Assembly (NCBI GenBank): GCA_965208675.1
Contig: OZ242351.1
Coordinates: 1,792,001-1,856,000, forward strand
Length of the DNA: 64,000 bases
Source of the DNA: Candidatus Poribacteria bacterium
GTDB taxonomy: Bacteria; Poribacteria; WGA-4E; PCPOR2b
Reading direction: 5' to 3'
The notes beneath the pieces are model-generated. The model saw only the letters and a program-made list of their open reading frames with translations, was not told the DNA's origin and did no database searches. Below, piece by piece: positions 25,801 to 64,000 of the stretch. The position numbers were made by a program, and so were the translations under genes. Every line of letters starts with the position of its first letter. Positions within the stretch are counted from its first letter, which is position 1.

Positions 25801-26417
25801 AAATCCGTGAAACCATGCTGGCGGTGCAGTTCACCGAGCGAAAGGTCGAACAAGATGTCGATGTGGGCGCGGTGTGGGTTGGCGAAGACGATGTCTTTGA
25901 TGAGCGTCACTTTTTCGAGGACATCTTTGGATTCGTCGCGCTTGTGCAACCGACGGTCGATTACGGCGAACGTGAGCGCATCGCCATGTTGGAACATGAC
26001 CATAGCGGGTATCATGAGCAGATTGTTGATTTCGCGGACGATGTCGGATAGTTGGGTGCGGGTGTAGCCGCGATGTTGTAGCTTTAGAGCGAAGAAGAGG
26101 TAGGATTCATAGCGGTTCTGATCGACGCCACTGCCCTCGAAGCGAAAGGAAGTCTGAGCGCTCTGTATGATTTCGTCGTCTGTCAGTTGAAACAGGAAGT
26201 CGATGGACGCCCACTCACTCAACAGCCCGCGTTCCCGGTTCATCGTATTTTGCCGGTCGAAATGCTCAACAAATCCATCGGCGGTGTTTGGTTCGAGGGA
26301 TAGTGTCCTTTGGCTGCGGTAGCCGAGGGTGTTGAGGAGATGGAGGGCGTTTTCGGCAATATTCTCATCGGTGAAGCGTTGTAGGGCGCTCTTGATATCG
26401 TCTTTGGATAAGTTCAT
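22839..26417 (-). CDS. Type IIG/Eco57I-like N6-adenine restriction-modification enzyme with TaqI-C-like TRD
   Basis: GSYYTP, ILDPAVGSGAF, GVDIQ, FDVVIGNPPYV, ADLYVYFYE, PLLRGRDVKRW; start MNLSK chosen because the ORF-track extension runs through a REP. Confidence 0.88.
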   Translation of the reverse strand: MNLSKDDIKSALQRFTDENIAENALHLLNTLGYRSQRTLSLEPNTADGFVEHFDRQNTMNRERGLLSEWASIDFLFQLTDDEIIQSAQTSFRFEGSGVDQNRYESYLFFALKLQHRGYTRTQLSDIVREINNLLMIPAMVMFQHGDALTFAVIDRRLHKRDESKDVLEKVTLIKDIVFANPHRAHIDILFDLSLGELHRQHGFTDFPALHEAWKNTLDTELLNKQFYQKLFNWFVCAVEESRFPLKEKRVLQPEQHIIRLITRLLFVWFIKEKGLIADELFDETEVAYLLKDYSRDTGDSYYRTVLQNLFFATLNTEIEKRQFSTEKNTTHRNFSRYRYKSQISHPDKLLELFTQTPFINGGLFDCLDSEEATGDGGYRIDCFSDVHYNKLTVPNRLFFDRDRGLIPLLEHYKFTVEENTPIEQEVALDPELLGKVFENLLAAYNPETGTTARRQTGSYYTPRPIVDYMVEEALVAALAGEVQPTDGDTELWEELRYLFDYAKVCDNASEWFDDDETDRIVRTISELKILDPAVGSGAFPMGALHKLTLALRRLDPDNTRWEQLQKERAIQRAADAFDTKDRETRDEELKEISRIFENYSGNFGRKLYLIQNSIFGVDIQSIACQIAKLRFFISLAIEQEPDRDADNFGIKPLPNLETRFIAVNTLIGLEEERTLTSPKARDLERELGDNRERHFHATTRPQKLACKREDKKLRRGLAKELKDIGMPPDDAEKIAHWDPYDQNASADWFDSEWMFGVTDGFDVVIGNPPYVRQEKIKELKPTLKDQYNCYTGTADLYVYFYERGFQLLRDNGVLTYISSNKYFRSAYGKKLRDFLARQYTLSQLIDFGDAPVFTSIAYPSIITASKTHAQDNHLRALNWEPGPSIDEFGTIFQTKGFTMPQNALTADGWRLTSPATLNLLKKLRNAGKPLGAYVKGRFYRGVLTGLNEAFVVDQATRNQLIAEHTASAEVMKPLLRGRDVKRWSVNFAEQYLIKIESSENRSHPWSVESAVEAEAIFADTYPAIYAHLQTFRDRLIERYDQGKYFWELRACAYWKEFQEPTIVWGNLAKNPKFAFSCPNVYLSAPATMMVSNSAYILGLMNSRITQYLVSQSAAERQGDFLEFKPMYISPIAIPDQPEDEGISKRVNQILDTKHANPEADVSELEYEIDQIVYLLYRLTPEEIKIVEGTENV

Positions 26418-26437
26418 CCTTCTATTCTCGGAAGTGC

Positions 26438-26510
26438 TGTGGGGGCAGGTACAAGACCTGCCCCCACATTTGAACAATTCGTGTAGGGGCAACCCTTATG
26501 GTTGCCTTGT
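26438..26510. repeat. Pair of GTAG/GTGG REP-like palindromes
   Basis: GTGGGGGCAGGT-ACAAG-ACCTGCCCCCAC and GTAGGGGCAACC-CTTAT-GGTTGCC. Confidence 0.7.
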
Positions 26511-26555
26511 AATCTTTTTCGGGGTAATCGTCAGTAGGATTTTATCGGCGGGACG

Positions 26556-27911
26556 TTAGGGCAGCAGAGATTCAGGAGCTTCGATTAGGCTTCGTAAATC
26601 GCCGAGGAATCGGGCGCAGGGCGCGCCGTCTATTGCACGGTGATCAAAGGTGAGAACCAGCGTTGCGCGGTCCCGTGCTACGATTGACTCGCCCTCAAAC
26701 ACCGCAACGCGGCGAACACGGCCGACGCCCAGAATAGCGCACTGCGGCGGGTTGAGGACAGGCGTAAACCAATCGACGCCCAATCCGCCGAGATTCGTGA
26801 CGGTAAAGGTACCATCCGCAAAGTCATTGGGCGCCAGTTTTCCGGTTCTAGCGCGCTCTGCGAGTTCCCGGACGCTGCTCGCAATCTTTACGACGTCGAG
26901 GTTGCCAGCGCCGCGAATTACAGGTACAACCAATCCGGCTTCAACGTCAATGGCGACCCCCAAGTTGATGTCGTGGTATTGGTGTATCGCGCCGTCAATA
27001 AGTGCTGCGTTAAGCTGGGGATGGAGTTTCAACGCTTCGACAGTGGCTTTCAATACGAAGTCGTTGATTGTCAGGGCGGCGCCGTACGCGTCGCGCCACA
27101 CGTCCGAATGGGCTGCCCGTGCGGATTGGATGGCGCTGAAATCCACTTCGATGCCTTCGGTGACGTGGGGCGCTTCAGACCAGTTTTTACCTAACCGTTC
27201 GGCGGTGGTACGCCGGATGCCTGCCAGCGGAATAACATCAACGCCATGGGTCGGAGGTTCGTCGACCGGCTTAGCCGCCTTGGGAGCGCCCGCATCTATT
27301 GCGCGCTGCACGTCTTCCTTAGTCACTCGTCCACCCGGACCCGTTCCACCCAACGCTCCTGCGTCAATGCCGTGCCGGTCTGCCAGCCGCTGCGCGACCG
27401 GCGTAACGCGAGACCGCACAGGGCGGTCCGCATCCGTGGGCTTAACCGCAGTTTGATCGGCTGTTTCCTTCACAGTGGGCACGCCAGAATCAATCGCACG
27501 CTGCACGTCTTCCTTAGTCACTCGTCCGCCCGGACCCGTTCCACCCAACGCTCCTGCGTCAATGCCGTGCCGGTCTGCCAGCCGCTGCGCGACCGGTGTA
27601 ACGTTCGACGCAGCTTGCCGATCGGCGACGGGCGCCTTGGGTTGCTCGACGGATTCTTCCGGCACCTTCTCACCTGCCTCGCCAATCCAAGCCAAGGTAT
27701 CACCGACGTCATATTCACGCTCGACCTCACCGACGAGCCTCAACAACACACCGCTGACAGGGGATTCAACATCGACAACAGCTTTGTCGGTCTCAATTGA
27801 CACGAGCAACTGTCCTTCCTCAATTGCGGCGCCCTCTGTTGCATGCCACTCGACGATACGCCCGGTATCCATGGTGTGGCCGAGCGCTGCTAAACGGAAC
27901 TGTATCGCCAT
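26556..27911 (-). CDS. Dihydrolipoamide acyltransferase (E2) with two peripheral subunit-binding domains
   Basis: Lipoyl motif ETDKA, two GTGPGGRVTKEDV, catalytic TFDHRAIDGA. Confidence 0.92.
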   Translation of the reverse strand: MAIQFRLAALGHTMDTGRIVEWHATEGAAIEEGQLLVSIETDKAVVDVESPVSGVLLRLVGEVEREYDVGDTLAWIGEAGEKVPEESVEQPKAPVADRQAASNVTPVAQRLADRHGIDAGALGGTGPGGRVTKEDVQRAIDSGVPTVKETADQTAVKPTDADRPVRSRVTPVAQRLADRHGIDAGALGGTGPGGRVTKEDVQRAIDAGAPKAAKPVDEPPTHGVDVIPLAGIRRTTAERLGKNWSEAPHVTEGIEVDFSAIQSARAAHSDVWRDAYGAALTINDFVLKATVEALKLHPQLNAALIDGAIHQYHDINLGVAIDVEAGLVVPVIRGAGNLDVVKIASSVRELAERARTGKLAPNDFADGTFTVTNLGGLGVDWFTPVLNPPQCAILGVGRVRRVAVFEGESIVARDRATLVLTFDHRAIDGAPCARFLGDLRSLIEAPESLLP

Positions 27912-27927
27912 GAATCTCCCCTTCTCG

Positions 27928-28899
27928 CTAGGACATTACCTGCTCAACGGCTGCGGTGATATTCGGAACCTCAGGAACAACATGCTTGACAAGCGCGGCA
28001 CTGAACGGCATCGGTACGTGCGGGCTGCCAACCCGAACAACCGGCGCCTTTAAATCCCCGAAACAGTTTTCGCCAATCATCGCGGCAATCTCGGAAACTG
28101 AGCCCGCAAAGCTGGAATCCTCGCCGCAGACTACGGCTCGACCGGTCCGCCGCACCGACTCGCAAATCGTTTCGGTATCGAGCGGTGATAGGGTTCTCGG
28201 ATCAACGACCTCCACATCGTAGCCTTCATCTTCCAACAGCACCGCAGCTTCCAGCGACTTTTGTACCATTGGACCGACAGCGACGATGGTCGCGTCCTCG
28301 CCATCCCGCTTTATATCTGCCTGGCCGAACGGGATGGTGTACTCCCCCTCCGGCACCTCACCCTTAGAAGTGTACGTGCGCTTGTATTCGAAAAATAGCA
28401 CAGGATCCGGACTGCGCACGGCGGTCTTTAGCAAGCCCTTGCCGTCGCTCGGCGTTGACGGAACAGCAACCTGCACACCGGGAACGTGCATAAACCAGGA
28501 TTCCATAATTTGTGAGTGCTGCGCCGCTAGCAGCCGGCCGGCACCGCACGGTAGGCGAATGACCATCGGGACGTTTGCCTGACCGCCGGTCATGTAGCGC
28601 ATCTTGGCTGCTTGGTTGACTACTTCGTCCATAGCGCACGTAATGAAATCTAGGTACATAATCTCCACAACCGGGTGCATGCCAGCCATCGCTGCACCGA
28701 CGCCTACACCGACAATTCCTGCCTCTGCGATTGGAGTCTCGAAGATGCGCCCGGGAAATCGTTCTGCGATGCCTTGTGTAACCTTGTACGGACCGCCGTG
28801 CGTAATTACATCCTCGCCCATGACAAACACGGTGTCGTCACGTTCCATCTCCTCGTGCAGCGCCTCTCGCAACGCCTCGCCGAAAGTGATTGTTCTCAT
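27928..28899 (-). CDS. TPP-dependent 2-oxoacid/acetoin dehydrogenase E1 beta
   Basis: MGEDV, TPIAEAG, AAQHSQ, VVDPRTLSPLD. Confidence 0.92.
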   Translation of the reverse strand: MRTITFGEALREALHEEMERDDTVFVMGEDVITHGGPYKVTQGIAERFPGRIFETPIAEAGIVGVGVGAAMAGMHPVVEIMYLDFITCAMDEVVNQAAKMRYMTGGQANVPMVIRLPCGAGRLLAAQHSQIMESWFMHVPGVQVAVPSTPSDGKGLLKTAVRSPDPVLFFEYKRTYTSKGEVPEGEYTIPFGQADIKRDGEDATIVAVGPMVQKSLEAAVLLEDEGYDVEVVDPRTLSPLDTETICESVRRTGRAVVCGEDSSFAGSVSEIAAMIGENCFGDLKAPVVRVGSPHVPMPFSAALVKHVVPEVPNITAAVEQVMS

Positions 28900-29879
28900 T
28901 ATCCCGCCTCCTGTGCTGGCGCCAAGACATCCGTAGTAACCTCGGCGGCGTCCGGAAACGGACTTTCATCGGCGAACTTCACGGCGTTTGCAATCTCGTC
29001 CTTCACCTCGTCTTGAATCGCGGTGTCCTCTTGGTCGGTCAGCCACTGCCGATCCGCCATTAATGCGCGCAGCGTTTTTATTGGGTCATGGTCAGTTCTC
29101 CAGGCTTCAACTTCCTCCAGCGTACGGTATTGTTGTTCGTCACCTAAACTGTGTCCATAGAACCGGTAGGTTCGCGCCTCGATTAACGTTGGCCCGCCGC
29201 TGCTGCGGGCACGATCGATTGCCTCGCGAGCGACTTCGTAAACTTCAATGGGGTCCTGTCCATTGACCGACACGCCCGGAATCGCATAGGCGCCAGCCAT
29301 ATCGGAAACCGAATCGAGCACAGCCACATTCATACGCGGCACCCACTGTTGGTATTGGTTGTTCTCGCAAACGTATACGACGGGAAGCTTCCACAAAGAT
29401 CCGAGCCCGATGCCCTCATGGAAAGTGCCGCGTGCAGCGGCACCGTCACCGAAAAAGCATACGGCTACCTGATCTGTCCCGCGCATCTTGCTGGCAAGCG
29501 CTGCGCCGGTGGCTGGTGCGATGCCGGCGCCGACAATGCCGTTGGCGCCGAGCATGTTAAGCGAGAAGTCCGCAATGTGCATTGAACCGCCTTTGCCGGC
29601 GCAGGTCCCCGTAGCTTTGCCATAGAGTTCAGCCATCATCTGCCGAGAATCAGCACCTTTAGCCAAACAGTGCCCGTGACTGCGGTGTGTGCCCAAGACG
29701 TAGTCATCCTTTCGCAAATTGGAACAAACGCCGACAGCGACAGCTTCCTCGCCGCAGTACATGTGAAGCGCACCCATCACGTTACCGAGATTAGTCTGGC
29801 GGTTTGCTTCCTCTTCGAAAAGCCGAATGCGCCACATATCTTTGTACATGGTCCGGCACAATTCCGCTGAAAGACTCAT
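28899..29879 (-). CDS. TPP-dependent 2-oxoacid/acetoin dehydrogenase E1 alpha (AcoA-like)
   Basis: THRSHGHCLAKG, GKGGSMHIAD, FFGDGA...ENN, TYRFYGHS. Confidence 0.92.
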   Translation of the reverse strand: MSLSAELCRTMYKDMWRIRLFEEEANRQTNLGNVMGALHMYCGEEAVAVGVCSNLRKDDYVLGTHRSHGHCLAKGADSRQMMAELYGKATGTCAGKGGSMHIADFSLNMLGANGIVGAGIAPATGAALASKMRGTDQVAVCFFGDGAAARGTFHEGIGLGSLWKLPVVYVCENNQYQQWVPRMNVAVLDSVSDMAGAYAIPGVSVNGQDPIEVYEVAREAIDRARSSGGPTLIEARTYRFYGHSLGDEQQYRTLEEVEAWRTDHDPIKTLRALMADRQWLTDQEDTAIQDEVKDEIANAVKFADESPFPDAAEVTTDVLAPAQEAG

Positions 29880-29979
29880 AAATTAATCTCCTGGAGTCAA
29901 TATTGTAAAATAATTCTTCAAGCAACAAGGAGGAGCGGAAAAATTCTTCCCCTCCCCCCCTTATAACCCCGCATTCAAT

Positions 29980-30363
29980 TTACTCTGGAGCGCACCCTAC
30001 TGAAGCGTGGATTTGTACAAATCTCCAGCTTCCCTGCTCCTTCTCCAGCACGCCCGTCATACGCATCGAAAGTTTTTCAAATACGCCCTGCCAAGTCAAA
30101 CGCCACACCTGCCGTGTATAAAACCATGCGACGTTGCCGCGCTCTTGAACATCAAGATGTTCAAGAGCGATTGTGAAATCGGCCGCGCACGCGACGAGGT
30201 GTTTATAGTAATCAGCCGTGTTTTCGCCGCCTTCAACAAACTCGCCGGCTTCCGTCCCGATTTTCACATAGTAACTCGCGGAAGACATCATCTCTATAAG
30301 CCGAGGTGCATCTCTCGCGGTAAGCGCATTAAAGTAGCTTTTGACAGTGGCGTGTGCATCCAT
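29980..30363 (-). CDS. SnoaL/NTF2-like protein
   Basis: RMTGVLEK..GSWRFVQIHAS C-terminus. Confidence 0.8.
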   Translation of the reverse strand: MDAHATVKSYFNALTARDAPRLIEMMSSASYYVKIGTEAGEFVEGGENTADYYKHLVACAADFTIALEHLDVQERGNVAWFYTRQVWRLTWQGVFEKLSMRMTGVLEKEQGSWRFVQIHASVGCAPE

Positions 30364-56716: not shown

Positions 56717-58252
56717 TTAAGGTTTTGATAAAGCGTCTCGAAGAAGTTTGTTTATATTCCGTATGAACGTTTTAGTTTTTCGTACGCCACTATCGCGCGC
56801 CGTGATTTCAGCGAGGGCGATTGCAATTGCCATTCGTTGGAGAGGTTCGATTTGGGATGTGTCGGTACCACCATACCGTAGCATAAATGGATGAGCAAGC
56901 GACATTCGAATTTTGACTCGTCGAAGGTTCCCATCCCACGGGTCGTCACTAACATCCAGCCAATCACCTACTGCCGGATCATTTGACAACTCTATTGAGA
57001 TTTCCCATAATCTGCCGTCGATTTCCACTGGTACGGTTTTATTGGCAACTGATACTTTTGCCTTGGGTAAATTGTGAGGTAGTGGTGTATTCTCCGTTCC
57101 TTCCTCAAGTTGTTTCTCAACAACTGGGGGCACGTCATTCTTTACTGTTTTAGACGTACGATGCGTTGAATTCTCAGCGCCCTTTTTCAAGTCTTGAGTT
57201 TTTGACCTTACACGATATCCTTCTGCTTGACTGAGTAATGCAATAGGTTTTTTTTCAAGTTCTTCCTTCAGGAGTTCTAAGAATGGACCTTCGTTTTCAT
57301 CCCACTGAAATCCATCCTTGGTGTGGCTGACATTGAATCCGTCAAGATGAAGTTCTCCAAAAAGCCGTTGGTAAGTGTAACTATTCGGCGACCCAAAAGG
57401 CCGATAACCCTCATCTGCACTCCCCTGAATCAATCGTTTTCTACGAAACAACGCAAATCCAGCTCTTGACGTACTTGCTTTCTCGCGTAGAGCCGCAAAC
57501 CCGCGTGCGCGTAATCCTGTTCCGAAGTCGAAGTCAATCTCTTTTCTCCACAATCGCGGTGCTTCCGATTGGATTTTGTGGAACGGTGCACGCAATATTT
57601 CCGGATTTGAGTACGACAAACCTTCTCCGCGGAAGTGAAGTTCTAGCAATTCCTCTCTGATGAACACCCGGTAGATACTTGCCAAATGATCCTGGATTTT
57701 GGAGATGGTTCTCCCTTGAGGGGGCCTGTGAAGGTTCGACAGTATAACTTCGGTGAAATGTGTGCTAGGTTCAATCGGCCTCGTTTCAATGATTAATTCC
57801 TCTAAGTTATCTTCTACGATTTTAGCAATGTCAAAGTGAACTGTTCTTTCCACCGATTCACCAAGTGCTGTCGTCCGTACGGCCCAGTTTGGTGAAAACC
57901 AACACGCAGCACTTTTCATTCCCATCCCAAATTCGGATAATCCGCTTGTGTCAGACGGTATGTCCGCGGGACGGAAAGCGCGGGGGTAGTCTGATTCGCG
58001 AATGCCCGCTGCGTTATCACGCACAGTTAAATACCCATCCTCGGCGGGATCTAGTTCAATTTCGACTTTTAGCCGCGTTTTGTCTCCATCCCACCGTTTG
58101 ATTTCCTCCCCGTTATCAAGAAAACTTTGAAGGGAATTATCGACAAATTCTGCAATTGCGAACCAAGGCCTATAGTTGAGGCGACTGAGGACAGATAAGA
58201 TGCCAACGCCGGGACGGATATGAATCTTTTCCCGTTTATTCATGATGCTCAA
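56717..58252 (-). CDS. GHKL/MORC-type ATPase
   Basis: AIAEFVDNS, VRDNAAGI, LSEFGMGMKSA, HFTEV. Confidence 0.88.
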   Translation of the reverse strand: MSIMNKREKIHIRPGVGILSVLSRLNYRPWFAIAEFVDNSLQSFLDNGEEIKRWDGDKTRLKVEIELDPAEDGYLTVRDNAAGIRESDYPRAFRPADIPSDTSGLSEFGMGMKSAACWFSPNWAVRTTALGESVERTVHFDIAKIVEDNLEELIIETRPIEPSTHFTEVILSNLHRPPQGRTISKIQDHLASIYRVFIREELLELHFRGEGLSYSNPEILRAPFHKIQSEAPRLWRKEIDFDFGTGLRARGFAALREKASTSRAGFALFRRKRLIQGSADEGYRPFGSPNSYTYQRLFGELHLDGFNVSHTKDGFQWDENEGPFLELLKEELEKKPIALLSQAEGYRVRSKTQDLKKGAENSTHRTSKTVKNDVPPVVEKQLEEGTENTPLPHNLPKAKVSVANKTVPVEIDGRLWEISIELSNDPAVGDWLDVSDDPWDGNLRRVKIRMSLAHPFMLRYGGTDTSQIEPLQRMAIAIALAEITARDSGVRKTKTFIRNINKLLRDALSKP

Positions 58253-59661
58253 TCTTGGTATTCACAAGAAGATCTAAATTCGCTCGCTACAACACTCGGA
58301 AGCACAATCGGGGAGAAAGTACCCGATGTTTCTCTCGCCGGCAACTCGACCAAACTTGTCGAGGTCTGGGTTTGCTGAAGGCAATCTTCAGAATGGTAAG
58401 TAAGCGCTTTGACAATTTCTTTAACCAGTTCTACATTCACCGCATTTCCTAAAGCTGTGAATGCGCGGGTTTGGGCTTTAGGTAACACTAAATTTTTGTC
58501 AATGCTCTGCAAACGAGCACATTCTCGTGGTGTCATGTACCGTTTTTGCCAACCGACAATTGGAACTTGCGTGTTTGACATCGCCACGAGTGAAGGCGCA
58601 GTCGTCCGTTTTTTGACCCGGACGCCTGAAGGCCTAAGTTGAATTAAAAGTTTCCATATGTCCCGTTCTTCATCTTGACAGTTCCACTCAAATTTTTGGT
58701 AACTCTGAGGAAAAGTTTTAATCTTTTGCATCCAGCCATCAATCCAACTCTTATGGTCCTGATAAAGTTTGCGGTTCTTTTGTATGAATCGGATTTTCCA
58801 CGTCGGGAATTGCTTCTGTTTCCTTCGCGCATAAGAAGGTAGATTGAGCCACACATTTTCATCGGATAATCCTGTTAGCGGCGTGGCGTGGTTCCCTAGA
58901 CATCCAAGTTCACGCAATTTGTCTGCTCCTAACACATGTGGTGTTGTTTTATCAAAAGGATAGTTTGCCCCAAATTCCATTGACCAGATTGGGAAAGATG
59001 GAAGTGGAGTATTTTCCGGAAACCGCTCAATGAATTCTTGCCAAACATGCAAGCATTCCTGAACAAGATTGGGCAATTTCTGATAGCTGGGTGGATCTGT
59101 GTCAAGTATCTTTCTAATATCCGGCTTTTCAATTTCACGCGGCGGTATAGGGAGACAAGCATCAACAGAGCGACTCCCAACAATGAACATCCGTCGGCGA
59201 ATCTGCGGAATTCCAAATTGATGAGGAGATAAACATGCCTCGTTAATTTGATAACTCGCTCCAAGAAGATCTTTTTTGACTTTTTGCCATGTACGTCCGC
59301 CATCATGCCGTTTGAGATGCGGGACATTTTCCAGAATAAAGTAGTTTGGCTTTTTCGCGCGGAGGATCTTTATAACATAGTCAAACAAGTCGCCCTTATC
59401 TGGACATTCAAATCCTCTCCGATGGCCTGCTTGAGAAAAAGGTTGACACGGGAATCCAGCGCATAGAATATCATGGCTGGGAATGTTTGCACTGTCAATT
59501 TTTTTGATATCGCCGTGTGGTTTGAACCCAAAATTTCGCGCGTAAAGTGCGTTGAGTTGCGGCTCAATTTCACACGCAAAAACGCACTGATGGCCGAGTT
59601 CCCTAAGTGCCAAATGGAAACCCCCAAGACCTGCGAAGAGATCTATGAATTTTAAACCCAT
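58249..59661 (-). CDS. dcm: DNA (cytosine-5)-methyltransferase
   Basis: DLFAGLGG, AGFPCQPFS, ILENV, PQIRRR, RECARLQ, LGNAV. Confidence 0.95.
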   Translation of the reverse strand: MGLKFIDLFAGLGGFHLALRELGHQCVFACEIEPQLNALYARNFGFKPHGDIKKIDSANIPSHDILCAGFPCQPFSQAGHRRGFECPDKGDLFDYVIKILRAKKPNYFILENVPHLKRHDGGRTWQKVKKDLLGASYQINEACLSPHQFGIPQIRRRMFIVGSRSVDACLPIPPREIEKPDIRKILDTDPPSYQKLPNLVQECLHVWQEFIERFPENTPLPSFPIWSMEFGANYPFDKTTPHVLGADKLRELGCLGNHATPLTGLSDENVWLNLPSYARRKQKQFPTWKIRFIQKNRKLYQDHKSWIDGWMQKIKTFPQSYQKFEWNCQDEERDIWKLLIQLRPSGVRVKKRTTAPSLVAMSNTQVPIVGWQKRYMTPRECARLQSIDKNLVLPKAQTRAFTALGNAVNVELVKEIVKALTYHSEDCLQQTQTSTSLVELPARETSGTFSPIVLPSVVASEFRSSCEYQD

Positions 59662-59682
59662 CGTATTTTCAACGTTTGTCCT

Positions 59683-60621
59683 TTAGTTGCGTGGTAATTT
59701 TTCGATTCTAGGCATTGCCCATTTGATGATTCGATCTTTCAATGACGATGATTCCCATTGTTCACGATATCTCGCTGCCGCTAGTAGTCTATGCCGGTCT
59801 AGCAACAATCCTTCTACTAGAACGCAATGGTCCCTAAAATTATCGTCGCTGAGGGCGAACGGAATCGCCAAACCCTTTTGAGGCGGAACCACGAAATCAA
59901 TCAACTTTCGCCACAGACCGATGCTCGGTTGCTGTATCTTCTTGACCCAGTCTCGCCCACTTGCGCACTGCATGAGATATACCGGAAAACCTCCTCGATG
60001 GTCCGAAAACGGACGGTAAAGCAAGAGGTCAAGACCGCCGTCTTTACGTCTTGTATTTGCCCGAGTGCGATTGTCATGTCTGGCGTCTTCGCCAAGCCAG
60101 TCGGCGGTTTGATTCACAATCTCTTGAAATCCCGTTGGATTCACGGGCGACCAACCAGTTCGTCTTACTTGCCAATCTGAAAACTGCTCTCTGAGGGATT
60201 CTTGTGTTACTAACTCGAACAGTTCTCCCTGTTCGTTGCGATCTCTACCAGTTACGCAATCCCACCAGTTTCTATAGCATTGGGATAACGACAGCAATAC
60301 GCAAAAACTGTGAGCGGGCATTGTCTGCCATGAATTAATCCGCTTTACTTCTGGATAGGTAACAGTGAACGGCATTTTAGGTCGAACATATTCAACCCTA
60401 CGCGTGAGTTCGGTCCAAGCGTGAACAAGAATTTCTTCAGCGAAGTCACGTCCATCATAGATATTTTCATTGATTAACACATCAACAACATCCATCACGG
60501 AGAAGTCGTCCTCACTTTCGTCGAACAGGATGCTAGCTTCTATCCAATCGCACAATATTTCAAGTTTGATATTGTGACGATTGACTGACCTGGCCATGCC
60601 ACTATCTGGAAGAGCAAGCAT
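59683..60621 (-). CDS. Putative restriction-endonuclease-fold protein
   Basis: GELFE...KDGGLDL...MQCASGRDW..K resembles an Mrr-like D..D...QC active site; LLDRHRL. Confidence 0.55.
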   Translation of the reverse strand: MLALPDSGMARSVNRHNIKLEILCDWIEASILFDESEDDFSVMDVVDVLINENIYDGRDFAEEILVHAWTELTRRVEYVRPKMPFTVTYPEVKRINSWQTMPAHSFCVLLSLSQCYRNWWDCVTGRDRNEQGELFELVTQESLREQFSDWQVRRTGWSPVNPTGFQEIVNQTADWLGEDARHDNRTRANTRRKDGGLDLLLYRPFSDHRGGFPVYLMQCASGRDWVKKIQQPSIGLWRKLIDFVVPPQKGLAIPFALSDDNFRDHCVLVEGLLLDRHRLLAAARYREQWESSSLKDRIIKWAMPRIEKLPRN

Positions 60622-61736
60622 TAGTTTTCCTTCTCACCCTGTTGGATTTCTTTGTGAACGCCAGGGAAGACATCCAGCAACTGGTAAACATCAATTCCCA
60701 ATCTATTTATCGCTTGCTGAATATCTTCAGAATCCTTATGATGATGGACGCGGCTCAGTGCTAATTGCACATTGTTTGCCGCCTCGTTGATGAGTTGCGC
60801 AATTTGGGATTCATCACCACCTGCTAACTGAAACGCGTAGTCAAAGTTCGGTTTCCTGTTTTCTTGGAGATACTGAACAGCCTTAGGGCTCTCAAGAATC
60901 CTCCCGAAATCATCAACCCGTCGCGAATCGGTGAAGATTGGAGGCTTCTCACTTGTGCCAAATAACCACTGCGCAAAGTAGCTGAGCGCTTCCAAGTGAG
61001 TTCTGGGTACCGGTGCCATGGTCACTTTTGGATCTGCAAAAATGTCTATATTAAGATACTGCTGCACGCCATGCGTCCGAAGCGAAAGATACATAACGCT
61101 AAATCTTCCTTCAGTCTTCAGATTCGTGAAGTCCTCTAAGGTGTCCTCCATTTGCAAGATTAACCGGTGAGAAATATAGTGTTGTCGAACAGTTGGGGTC
61201 TTGCTTCCAATTTTTCGCATCACATCTTCATAAGTCATGTTTCCTTCATCAATCAAATTTGCGATGAATTGTGCTTTCTGTGCCGGCTGCCATTGTTTGA
61301 TACCTGTAACATGACGAAACCCCAGAAAAGACTCAATGTCCTGTCGAGAATCAACCTGTAGATACGGAATCTCATTGAAAAGGCTTACGGATACTGTTCG
61401 ATTTTGGACAAGCAACATCCATTTTTTTGATGTCTCTTCTCGATTTACAGCCCGACGAAGCAATATTAGGGCCGCAAGGCGCCGATTTCCTTCGACAACA
61501 ACTAGTCGGTTTTCTCCATATAATTCTTCTTCGGTAACCAATAACGCTTCATGTGTCCAAAAACCGCTTTCCAAATATGACACAGCGAGTTCATCAAGCA
61601 CCCATGTGCGCATTATATCAAGGATTTCGTCTTGCGAGAGAGATGTGCTATCTTGATGTCGGCCAAGTCGCGGGTTCTTTGTATCAAGATAAAGGTCATC
61701 CAACGTGGCGTATTGAAGTCTTTCGCAAATTCCCAT
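60621..61736 (-). CDS. ParB/Srx-like N-terminal domain protein
   Basis: LDTKNPRL, VVVEGNRRLAAL, GFRHVTGIKQW; TAATG overlap with the next gene. Confidence 0.75.
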   Translation of the reverse strand: MGICERLQYATLDDLYLDTKNPRLGRHQDSTSLSQDEILDIMRTWVLDELAVSYLESGFWTHEALLVTEEELYGENRLVVVEGNRRLAALILLRRAVNREETSKKWMLLVQNRTVSVSLFNEIPYLQVDSRQDIESFLGFRHVTGIKQWQPAQKAQFIANLIDEGNMTYEDVMRKIGSKTPTVRQHYISHRLILQMEDTLEDFTNLKTEGRFSVMYLSLRTHGVQQYLNIDIFADPKVTMAPVPRTHLEALSYFAQWLFGTSEKPPIFTDSRRVDDFGRILESPKAVQYLQENRKPNFDYAFQLAGGDESQIAQLINEAANNVQLALSRVHHHKDSEDIQQAINRLGIDVYQLLDVFPGVHKEIQQGEKEN

Positions 61737-62317: not shown

Positions 62318-63214
62318 TCACGAAGTTCTGATGAAAAACGGCTGTGTCCACGCCATGCGTCCGCCAGCGCCGTAGCATTCGGCGCGGATATACCCCAACC
62401 GCGCGGCATCGTCCGGGCTTTCCGGTAGTGTGAATGTAGCTTCAGGGGCATCGACTGTGGAACGGATGACGCCGGCGTTACTGATGAAACGGATTCGCTG
62501 CGCATCTTCAGTAGCTACATGCACCGTTTTACCTTCCGCACCGACGCGGGTGACTGTGACACCAGTAGAGCCGTAGAAACTGCCGGCTTTGAGCGCTGAT
62601 GTTATGCCTTCAACTGTACAGTCTTCTGTTTGTACCATGTTCCAAGCGAGTTCAACGTCGACCGGGAGATGTGAATCGTCGTGCGCAAACCCCCAGATTT
62701 CCAGTCCCGTTGTCAGCAAGCGATCCCACCGATCTGTCGCTAACGCGACGCCGGGCAGGCGTTCAATGACGCCGTTGTAGATTTCGATGCCGTGGTAGCG
62801 ATTGAGGGATTCCATCTGTTCCTGTGGAAAATGATTAAAGTGCGCTTCAAAGTTCGGGTGGTTCAGCACACTCACGCCGCCCTGTTTGTTGATTTCGTCG
62901 ATAACCCACTGTCGATTCGGGTGCGGCTCAATCCAGGCTTCCGCGTTGACCTGCAAAATATGGGGACCTCGCGCCGTCACTTCAACCGCCGGGATGAGCG
63001 TCATGGAGGTCTCTTTCTGATAGCCATCGAGTTTAACCAACACGTCGTGATCCGAGATAGCCAAGAAATCGTAACCCCGGCTATCGTAGTCGGCAATTAC
63101 CGCTTCGGGCGGAAGAGAGCCGTCGCTGCGGGTTGTATGGGTATGCAGGTTGCCGCGGAACCAGTTTGAAGCCCCTGTGTAGCTGCTCTTTAGCTGGATA
63201 CCGTTATTTGACAT
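62318..63214 (-). CDS. PHP-domain metallohydrolase (CehA/McbA-like)
   Basis: GNLHTHTTRSDG, ISDHD, LNHP, IEIYN, DDSH; AAGGAG RBS before ATG 63214. Confidence 0.85.
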   Translation of the reverse strand: MSNNGIQLKSSYTGASNWFRGNLHTHTTRSDGSLPPEAVIADYDSRGYDFLAISDHDVLVKLDGYQKETSMTLIPAVEVTARGPHILQVNAEAWIEPHPNRQWVIDEINKQGGVSVLNHPNFEAHFNHFPQEQMESLNRYHGIEIYNGVIERLPGVALATDRWDRLLTTGLEIWGFAHDDSHLPVDVELAWNMVQTEDCTVEGITSALKAGSFYGSTGVTVTRVGAEGKTVHVATEDAQRIRFISNAGVIRSTVDAPEATFTLPESPDDAARLGYIRAECYGAGGRMAWTQPFFIRTS

Positions 63215-63310
63215 TTTTGACTCCTTCTTCGCAAGATATACAGACATGTCCGCGATTAGTTCAAACAAACCTTCTAAACTTACTGGCCACTGGCTGCTGC
63301 CTCTGCGGTT

Positions 63311-64000
63311 TCAATCTAAGGAAGCGTAATATTCAACGATGACTTGCCACGCCTTCTCGCTCATGAATCCGTCGGGCGGGGATTCGCCGCTACGCGCGTA
63401 TTCACGCATCTGCGAACCTGAAACGAAAAGAAAATCCGGGGCGCGGTCGGGTTCAAAAAAGCCCATACTGCCCGCGGCTTTGTCATAAGCCGCGACGCGG
63501 AACGGGACGATTTTCAGGCGTTCTAGTCCAACCGCGGTTTGTAACGCCTTCACGCCGTGCCAAGGATCATATAACGGGGCAGACTTGCCGCCGGAGTCGA
63601 GCCGCTCCGGATGCGGCATGCCTGCCGGGTCCCGCCCGACGATGTAGTAATCCGCGCCAGCGTTCATCCGCGCCTTCGCATGCCACTGCACCTCGGTTGG
63701 ACCGGCGTAAAGCATCGGGCTAGGAAAAATCGAGACGACTGTCGTGTCCGCATCCAGTACACCGTCTTCGAGAACTGCGTCGTGTTGGCGCATCCGCACC
63801 GGCAACGGCACATCATCGGCTTTTGTCCAACCGCCCAGTGGATGGAGCAGGAGCATCGGGTTTTGATATCCCTGTTTTTTTAGCTCGTCCCGGGTCTCGT
63901 TCATCAACAGCGCATGACCGTTGTGAATGGGGTTGCGCAGTTGAAACGCATAGACGACATCAGCGCCGCGCCGTTTGAATTCTGCGCGAAGTTCCGCAGG
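63311..64000 (-). CDS. sat: Sulfate adenylyltransferase (ATP sulfurylase), 3' part, plant/animal-like
   Basis: Open from the right edge: [48 protein letters not shown]. Confidence 0.93.

Follow-up and report, generated by a model that had tools for sequence, protein, structure and literature searches.

The stretch of DNA analysed here, 64,000 nucleotides from a Candidatus Poribacteria bacterium (GenBank assembly GCA_965208675.1, contig OZ242351.1, positions 1,792,001 to 1,856,000; hereafter the window), carries at its end a gene that encodes a stand-alone ATP sulfurylase (ATPS) of the type shared by plants, glaucophytes and PAPSS, the metazoan 3′-phosphoadenosine 5′-phosphosulfate (PAPS) synthase. 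The genome, G000 in our numbering, is a single contig of 4,892,038 bases and 96.4% complete, and the window corresponds to G000:C1:1792001-1856000. We consider it probable that the gene goes back to an ancient transfer from an Archaeplastida-like eukaryote, not from the sponge host, which was followed by replacement of the native sat gene in place. The gene is located as follows:

63311..64000, minus strand: plant/glaucophyte-type ATP sulfurylase, C-terminal part, 229 codons plus stop (open reading frame and translation)
63311-64537 in window-equivalent positions (L002 2311-3537; G000:C1:1855314-1856537), minus strand: whole ATP sulfurylase gene, 408 codons

The open reading frame (ORF) leaves the window at its 5′ side, and position 63311 is its end including the stop codon. 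Read into the genomic continuation beyond position 64000, it is uninterrupted over all 408 codons and free of introns, and a Shine-Dalgarno sequence (GAGGAG) lies 7 bases before its ATG; an earlier note, made from the letters of the window alone, had described the visible part as intron-free among bacterial genes, and this extends to the whole gene. Pfam assigns PUA_2 (PF14306) to residues 4-165 (158.5 bits) and ATP-sulfurylase (PF01747) to residues 174-403 (219.8 bits) of the 408-amino-acid protein. No adenosine 5′-phosphosulfate (APS) kinase domain was found by Pfam in the polypeptide besides these two domains, so that the enzyme is not a bifunctional PAPS synthase, and the possible kinase fusion past position 64000 that the earlier note had raised is absent. 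The protein passes TIGR00339 (sopT, the sulfate adenylyltransferase equivalog domain; 373.3 bits over residues 6-402, cut-off 322.95) and fails NF003166 (PRK04149, the bacterial sulfate adenylyltransferase subfamily; 218 bits, cut-off 387).

When all chains of the PDB were searched, the best match was the soybean ATPS 4maf (558 bits, residues 3-407), and the sulfurylase domains of human PAPSS1 and PAPSS2 (1x6v, 2qjf, 7fh3) reached 498-509 bits. Ordinary Sat structures from Aquifex, yeast, Penicillium, Methanothermococcus, Allochromatium, the Riftia symbiont and Thermus scored 93-151 bits, and the weakest ordinary Sat chain (3cr8) 46 bits. In a collection of 5.8 billion proteins, 22 metagenome or genome proteins of 401-419 amino acids rank first, at 66-97% identity to the window ATPS; three glaucophytes and then land plants come next, at 62-67% identity over the full length. 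An exhaustive HMMER search of 1.84 billion representatives returned plant, red-algal and PAPSS-like proteins at 270-544 bits and ordinary Sat at about 140-190 bits. The likeness to the plant and PAPSS enzymes is far beyond chance.

The same contrast is seen at the level of single motifs. In the alignment, the diagnostic residues of the window ATPS (two stretches of 39 and 10 protein letters) are those of plants, glaucophytes and metazoa, whereas the ordinary Sat rows read FQTRNP.HRAHE, HPLVG or NPLVG, AGPREA..HA and GRDHAG. The HXXH motif of the window ATPS is HNGH within FQLRNP.HNGH (16 letters), and its PP-loop (14 letters) fits the pattern G...Y.VGRDPAGM; both are catalytic motifs of the plant enzyme according to passages in PMC9578213, which name Arg248, Asn249, His255 and Arg349 for soybean. 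All motifs quoted in the earlier note are present in the minus-strand frame of 63311-64000 (101 protein letters and PPDGFM), and the contrast it drew with ordinary Sat is borne out by the alignment and the PDB scores (558 and about 500 bits against at most 151 bits). Based on Pfam domains, PDB scores, identities and the trees described below, its central claim of a plant/animal-type enzyme in a bacterial gene context is fully supported.

To place the gene within its phylum, 176 species genomes were searched for ATPS, a survey that the earlier note had proposed for related genomes. The plant type is present in 12 of them, at 66-100% identity and in open frames of 405-417 amino acids: in all four genomes of the window's own genus (g1), in G030 (family f1, genus g3), in six of the seven genomes of family f3 and in G017 (family f9). 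One ordinary sat, 27-35% identical to the window ATPS, is found in 157/176 genomes, while seven genomes (61-96% complete) gave no match. A second match beside the plant type was seen in none of the 12 plant-type genomes, and no genome among the 176 has both types. We distinguish two kinds of ordinary sat: ordA, in families f5-f8, f10 and f11, and ordB, which has a long branch and occurs in f2, f4 and most of f1. Either kind exceeds the cut-off of NF003166, ordA with 573 bits and ordB with 412-415 bits.

These types were compared with a quick tree of one marker, RpoB, for 30 genomes with f10 and f11 as the chosen outgroup. In this tree f10/f11 are followed by f5, f6 and f7 and then by a group of f9, f8 and the order comprising f1-f4. 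The deepest families (f10, f11, f5, f6 and f7) carry ordinary sat, and within the order f1-f4 the plant type occupies f3, ordB occupies f4, and f1 and f2 are mixed, with G030 (plant type) as sister to G032 (ordB). The tree of the plant-type genes, (unplaced metagenome branch, (f9, (f3, (g3, g1)))), agrees with the RpoB order, and patristic distances of ATPS and RpoB correlate with r=0.97 (28 non-independent pairs from 8 genomes). The RpoB search also revealed a second rpoB-like set on other contigs in G017, G007, G003, G008 and G032, which suggests mixed bins. Separately, ORFs of about 1020-1100 amino acids match the RpoB model only at 450-660 and 1010-1144 (G000:C1:3673210-3674193 and homologous places, with homologues in G034, G035, G048, G044, G025, G029 and G036); they may encode an RpoB-like paralogue or domain protein that is conserved in the phylum.

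Different sat types fill the same operon position at three loci. In the first slot (sat, PF01663 phosphodiesterase, cysC), G017 has the plant type where G005, G001 and G003 have ordA. In the second (Lar_N gene, zinc alcohol dehydrogenase, sat), G025, G161 and G085 carry ordB and G030 the plant type. The third slot (sat, PHP hydrolase) holds the plant type in G000, G033, G034, G035, G061 and G063 and ordB in G032. The PHP proteins of G032 and G000 are 72% identical, and in G032 a 4-base gap lies between the called ordB sat and PHP ORFs. Because different types stand in the same slots at three loci, the plant-type ATPS and native sat are used interchangeably; as the sat-PF01663-cysC operon contains ordA in the deep families, the plant type is a derived state within the phylum. 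Orthologous replacement is thus caught in place, with three sat types at the same operon positions in sister lineages. One possibility is that the sat slot of the phylum acts as a swappable cassette that has been exchanged repeatedly between lineages by homologous recombination. The protein encoded between sat and cysC is a type I phosphodiesterase/nucleotide pyrophosphatase (PF01663) of 445-480 amino acids (L023 in G005, L025 in G001, L026 in G003 and L031 in G017).

Outside the named genomes, 13 of the 22 bacterial-length proteins have a counterpart of at least 90% identity among the phylum's genomes, and P0005, P0006, P0007, P0010 and P0015 fall inside clades of the phylum's copies. The proteins P0020, P0023, P0024 and P0025 form an unplaced metagenomic branch at the base of the bacterial clade, the contig of P0024 being 105 kb long, and a scan of metagenomes of the Joint Genome Institute (JGI) contained nothing closer than 66% identity to this branch. 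Among the bacterial-length matches listed, the plant type is confined to relatives of the phylum and one unplaced branch. The JGI scan returned 80 loci, and neighbourhoods were examined for 11: four (L068, L070, L073 and L102) have neighbours that match G000 genes at 35-79% identity and resemble Poribacteria, and the other seven are longer, fused or isolated ATPS genes without G000-like neighbours. A single-protein scan of genome contigs, which reaches near relatives only, gave 3 loci. Two further proteins in the collection have unusual architectures. P0139 (929 amino acids, on a 19-kb contig) has a major facilitator superfamily (MFS) transporter domain N-terminal to a eukaryote-type PUA_2 and ATP-sulfurylase pair and may be a fusion of transporter and sulfurylase. 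P0008 (595 amino acids, from a scaffold of Cocos nucifera) contains two tandem copies of the C-terminal two-thirds of ATP sulfurylase (query residues 122-400 and 121-407) and is probably a gene-model or assembly oddity.

Next, we analysed the relationship of the bacterial and eukaryotic enzymes in three trees, which were calculated under LG+C20+F+G4 by posterior mean site frequency (PMSF): two quick trees, of 76 and 47 rows, and a careful tree with 47 rows and 403 columns. The careful tree holds 47 of the 100 rows collected (92 minus P0008, which was kept out of the trees, plus eight new metazoan rows). Of the 22 bacterial-length metagenome proteins, 16 were removed for being at least 90% identical to a retained row; the long-branch unnamed proteins P0132, P0134, P0140 and P0183 were left out, as were P0127, P0128, P0133, P0139, P0142, P0145, several plants and other ordinary Sat rows. 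The bacterial copies are monophyletic in all three trees (support 89 in the quick 76-row tree and 82/87 in the careful tree). Together with the plant, glaucophyte, red-algal and metazoan enzymes and the fusions from stramenopiles, alveolates and Rhizaria (SAR), they form a clade with support of 100/100 in the careful tree, so the window ATPS does not group inside the ordinary Sat clades, where its placement, according to the earlier note, would have refuted that note's reading. Within this clade the bacteria are sister to the three glaucophytes (95 in the quick 76-row tree, 88 in the quick 47-row tree and 72/88 in the careful tree).

Conserved alignment columns point in the same direction. In three of them the SAR fusions have the outgroup residue, and a derived residue is common to bacteria, glaucophytes, streptophytes and metazoa; the T-to-L change in Q(T/L)RNP is among the three. 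Columns in which the bacteria alone keep the outgroup state number zero. Of the two inferences drawn in the earlier note, a eukaryote-to-bacterium transfer or a bacterial sister lineage, neither is singled out by the tree alone: as the approximately unbiased (AU) test does not reject eukaryote monophyly, the direction of transfer is not given by the tree. Transfer from a eukaryote into bacteria is favoured because of the glaucophyte-adjacent position, the column count, the narrow bacterial distribution and the derived state within the phylum, and it is on these grounds that we infer both the direction and the donor.

Several observations weigh against this interpretation. The grouping of bacteria with glaucophytes reaches only 72/88 in the careful tree, in which the branches that would relate the five in-group lineages to one another lack the support needed to be drawn. 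The branch to the outgroup is very long (about 3.4 changes per column), which makes the rooting weak, and a tree that keeps the 25 eukaryote rows together with the bacteria outside is not rejected by the AU test (p=0.494, difference in log-likelihood (lnL) 0.09). An affinity to metazoa is disfavoured, yet the test stops short of formal rejection (p-AU 0.089). Three columns against none is a small count, and the tree rows contain one red alga only and no sponge, choanoflagellate, cryptophyte or haptophyte. The basal branch of P0020, P0023, P0024 and P0025 comes from unassigned organisms, and any bacterial copy whose identity to the query is below about 62% would be hidden behind the plants in the best 120 matches. 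Finally, the RpoB order stems from a quick single-marker tree in which G017 supplies only 31% of the columns, and as this only plant-type genome of f9 has a second rpoB-like set, its binning is not beyond doubt.

A less probable but serious alternative is that the Poribacteria clade is the surviving bacterial sister of the eukaryotic ATPS/PAPSS sulfurylase, or the donor to all eukaryotes or to the glaucophyte lineage. The unrejected topology with the bacteria outside the eukaryotes would fit it, as would the age of the gene in the phylum, where its distances track those of RpoB, and the fact that the bacterial proteins start exactly at the conserved core, without a presequence; moreover, the prokaryotic source of the eukaryotic clade is given as unknown in sections of PMC2275785 and PMC4220642. 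This alternative is at odds with the derived state of the type in the phylum, since the deep families have ordinary sat and f9 holds the plant type in the very slot that is filled by ordinary sat in f5, f10 and f11. It also has to accommodate a distribution that, among the bacterial-length matches listed, is limited to the phylum's relatives and one unplaced branch, a best tree that puts the bacteria beside the glaucophytes and not at a plausible root of the eukaryotes, and three conserved columns in which the bacteria side with Archaeplastida and metazoa and not with SAR and the outgroup. If glaucophytes had received the gene from bacteria, two transfers would be required instead of one. In its strict form, namely that the Poribacteria clade was not a recipient but is the only surviving bacterial sister or source of the plant, glaucophyte, red-algal, animal and SAR ATPS, we regard it as slightly less likely still.

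Since the organism lives in sponges, and the stretch around the gene is found in runs labelled sponge metagenome from 11 coded studies, a host PAPS synthase that lost its APS kinase half could be considered as the source, and the earlier note had offered a host as an example of a donor. This origin is very unlikely and the example is unsupported. The metazoan PAPSS rows form their own clade in the careful tree (100/98), apart from the bacteria, and the window ATPS is 62-67% identical to glaucophyte and plant enzymes but only 49% to the nematode PAPSS row, in line with the PDB scores (558 bits for soybean against 498-509 bits for human PAPSS). Metazoan proteins carry an N-terminal APS kinase fusion, whereas the bacterial and Archaeplastida proteins are unfused. 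Constraining bacteria and metazoa to group together costs 14.35 lnL units; the p-AU given above for this constraint, which falls short of rejection, comes from rows that include no sponge.

The gene is firmly integrated. Its chromosome has an rRNA gene, RpoB and operons of the bacterial kind and is thus bacterial, and not the eukaryotic genome that membership of the plant/metazoan clade would lead one to expect. Three further complete chromosomes of the genus carry the ATPS at 96, 86 and 85% protein identity, and its neighbours are identical in gene content across all four genomes of the genus. Assembled contigs from four sponge-metagenome runs, each of a different study, cover all 30 bins of a 3.5-kb stretch; single contigs bridge the junction between the PHP gene and ATPS (X5 record 11 and X6 record 19) and the junction of ATPS with its upstream neighbour (X9 record 31). 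All sampled words of this stretch are present in four runs of one sample, possibly its source, and 28-47% of them occur in 19 further runs of 13 further coded studies, 16 of these runs being labelled sponge metagenome. The GC content of the gene (0.547) is at the 91st percentile and its GC3 (0.581) at the 81st percentile of 1565 long ORFs of the genome, so that both lie within the genome's own range and are no outliers. At 0.545, the GC content of the last 2 kb of the window slightly exceeds the average of the whole window. A TG-TATAAT element lies further upstream of the ATPS start; a scan for promoters and terminators found 3 sites against a mean of 2.8 in shuffled sequence, which is no excess. 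Eukaryotic contamination or a chimeric join, the latter named in the earlier note as a way in which its claim could fail, is thus refuted by the shared neighbours in the other chromosomes, the contigs from independent runs across both gene junctions, the bacterial ribosome-binding site, the lack of introns and the unremarkable base composition within one 4.89-Mb contig, and we give it practically no weight.

Under the transfer from a eukaryote to bacteria, the donor would be a eukaryote related to Archaeplastida, with glaucophytes as the nearest sampled eukaryotes and the sponge host not the source. The recipient would be an ancestor of part of the phylum, in the line from which family f9 and the order of f1-f4 descend, and the transfer would be older than the separation of f9 from this order. 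Within the conserved sat-phosphodiesterase-cysC operon, the acquired gene would have taken the very place of the native sat, and it would have been inherited mostly vertically thereafter. In many of the descendants, the same positions are now occupied by ordB, the second and divergent bacterial sat. In the present genome, the enzyme would be expressed from bacterial signals, in an operon with a PHP-family metallohydrolase, and would feed APS to a separate APS kinase, a CysH-like APS/PAPS reductase and a sulfite reductase.

The gene content of G000 is consistent with such a role. PF01747 has exactly one match in the genome, the window ATPS, and CysD (TIGR02039) has none on this nearly complete single contig, which leaves no CysD/CysN heterodimer. 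The plant-type ATPS is therefore the only sulfate-activating enzyme of G000 and the sole entry of sulfate to the reductive and PAPS pathways, and it appears to be essential in this genome. Conserved motifs and its place as sole candidate gene point to the predicted activity (ATP + sulfate to APS + pyrophosphate (PPi)). One separate APS kinase gene (206 amino acids; G000 1188238-1188684) lies 0.67 Mb from ATPS, and the genome has one CysH-like APS/PAPS reductase (NF002537, 191 bits, cut-off 154) and one sulfite reductase. With regard to a eukaryotic origin of the APS kinase, its best PDB match is Arabidopsis APK1 (248 bits) and it passes bacterial NCBIfam models at 303 bits, which is not diagnostic.

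Directly downstream of ATPS, on the same strand, the following gene was predicted:

62318..63268, minus strand: PHP-domain metallohydrolase of the CehA/McbA family, likely start ATG at 63214, 298 amino acids

This gene matches NF038032 with 110.9 bits (cut-off 80), and its Pfam PHP match is weak. The scanned stretch, including the gap between ATPS and the PHP gene, has no minus-strand terminator-like site, and the two genes are probably co-transcribed as an operon. The adjacency of sat and the PHP gene is found in 4/4 genomes of the genus, in two genomes of another family (G061 and G063) and at the metagenome loci L068 and L070. The PHP gene stands directly 3′ of sat whatever sat type fills the slot. 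Homologues at E<=1e-40 occur in 19 of the 176 genomes, and that of G005 (G005:C108:9818-10696) has one in-frame TAG. An assignment as 3′,5′-bisphosphate (pAp) phosphatase is speculative (NF041577, 36.3 bits against a cut-off of 400, with weak PDB matches), as CehA/McbA fits instead. That the hydrolase removes PPi or a nucleotide by-product is a guess.

Elsewhere in the window, four consecutive minus-strand ORFs of 511, 470, 312 and 371 amino acids lie at 56717-61736. The 470-amino-acid ORF starts with FAGLGG and PCQ-type motifs, as are known from cytosine-5 DNA methyltransferases, and the four ORFs may represent a restriction-modification or defence island. The GC content is 0.56-0.58 at 26001-30000 and about 0.45-0.52 in the remaining window.

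Among known enzymes, the plastidic/cytosolic ATPS of plants (soybean 4maf and Arabidopsis APS1-4) has the same two domains as the window ATPS and no fusion to APS kinase, and its identity to the window ATPS is 62-65%. The plant enzyme is a homodimer, as the title of a reference cited in PMC4220642 has it. The Arabidopsis row has identical HNGH and GRDPAG motifs, and the surrounding residues (14 protein letters and Y.VGRDPAGM) differ from the window ATPS at two positions. Plant ATPS has 50-150 extra N-terminal residues, however, while the window ATPS has no transit peptide and lies on a bacterial chromosome behind a Shine-Dalgarno sequence and beside a PHP hydrolase gene. Streptophyte ATPS also shows a one-residue insertion and an FMCPGGW C-terminus, both of which are lacking in the bacterial protein. 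The nearest eukaryotic relatives are the ATPS of the glaucophytes Cyanoptyche gloeocystis (P0026), Gloeochaete (P0027) and eukprot tig00000042 (P0028), at 64-67% identity. They have the C-terminal motif FMG..AWQV in common with the bacterial protein but, at 482-486 amino acids, carry presequences of about 80 residues that it lacks. The sulfurylase of human PAPSS1/2 belongs to the same clade and has FQLRNP.HNGH and GRDPAG as in the window ATPS; its identity is lower, and PAPSS has the APS kinase fused at the N-terminus, whereas the kinase of G000 is the distant separate gene described above. Ordinary bacterial Sat, including ordA and ordB, catalyses the reaction that is predicted for the window ATPS and shares the domain build, a length of about 396-399 amino acids and the slots in sister lineages, but its identity is only 27-35% and its motifs (QTRNP.HRAHE, HPLVG and GRDHAG) differ.

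A precedent for transfer of ATPS from eukaryotes to bacteria, in that case to cyanobacteria, is proposed in sections of Patron et al. 2008 (PMC2275785), which concern a different ATPS clade, that of chlorophytes and marine cyanobacteria, and thus other recipients. The same sections relate plant ATPS to metazoan and stramenopile enzymes in a clade “containing only eukaryotes” that is “likely of eukaryotic origin”, and excerpts of Prioretti et al. 2014 and of a 2024 review state that the phylogeny and origin of ATPS are still to be elucidated (PMC4220642, PMC11350084). A full-text literature search, which covered articles and not their supplementary files, where trees may be found, returned no paper that links Poribacteria with a plant-type ATP sulfurylase.

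In enzymatic terms the window ATPS adds a new member to a known family; what is unusual about its evolution is that its bacterial clade sits within a clade of enzymes otherwise found in eukaryotes. It provides a bacterial, intron-free and presequence-free version of the plant enzyme that is useful for biochemistry. If the gene did pass from a eukaryote to bacteria, it would represent a rare, ancient and functionally fixed transfer of a core metabolic enzyme. If the bacteria are instead its sister or source, it would be the first bacterial relative able to root the eukaryotic clade and would supply the long-missing prokaryotic origin of this sulfate activation enzyme. The 12 genomes and the three swap loci now make it possible to test both readings.

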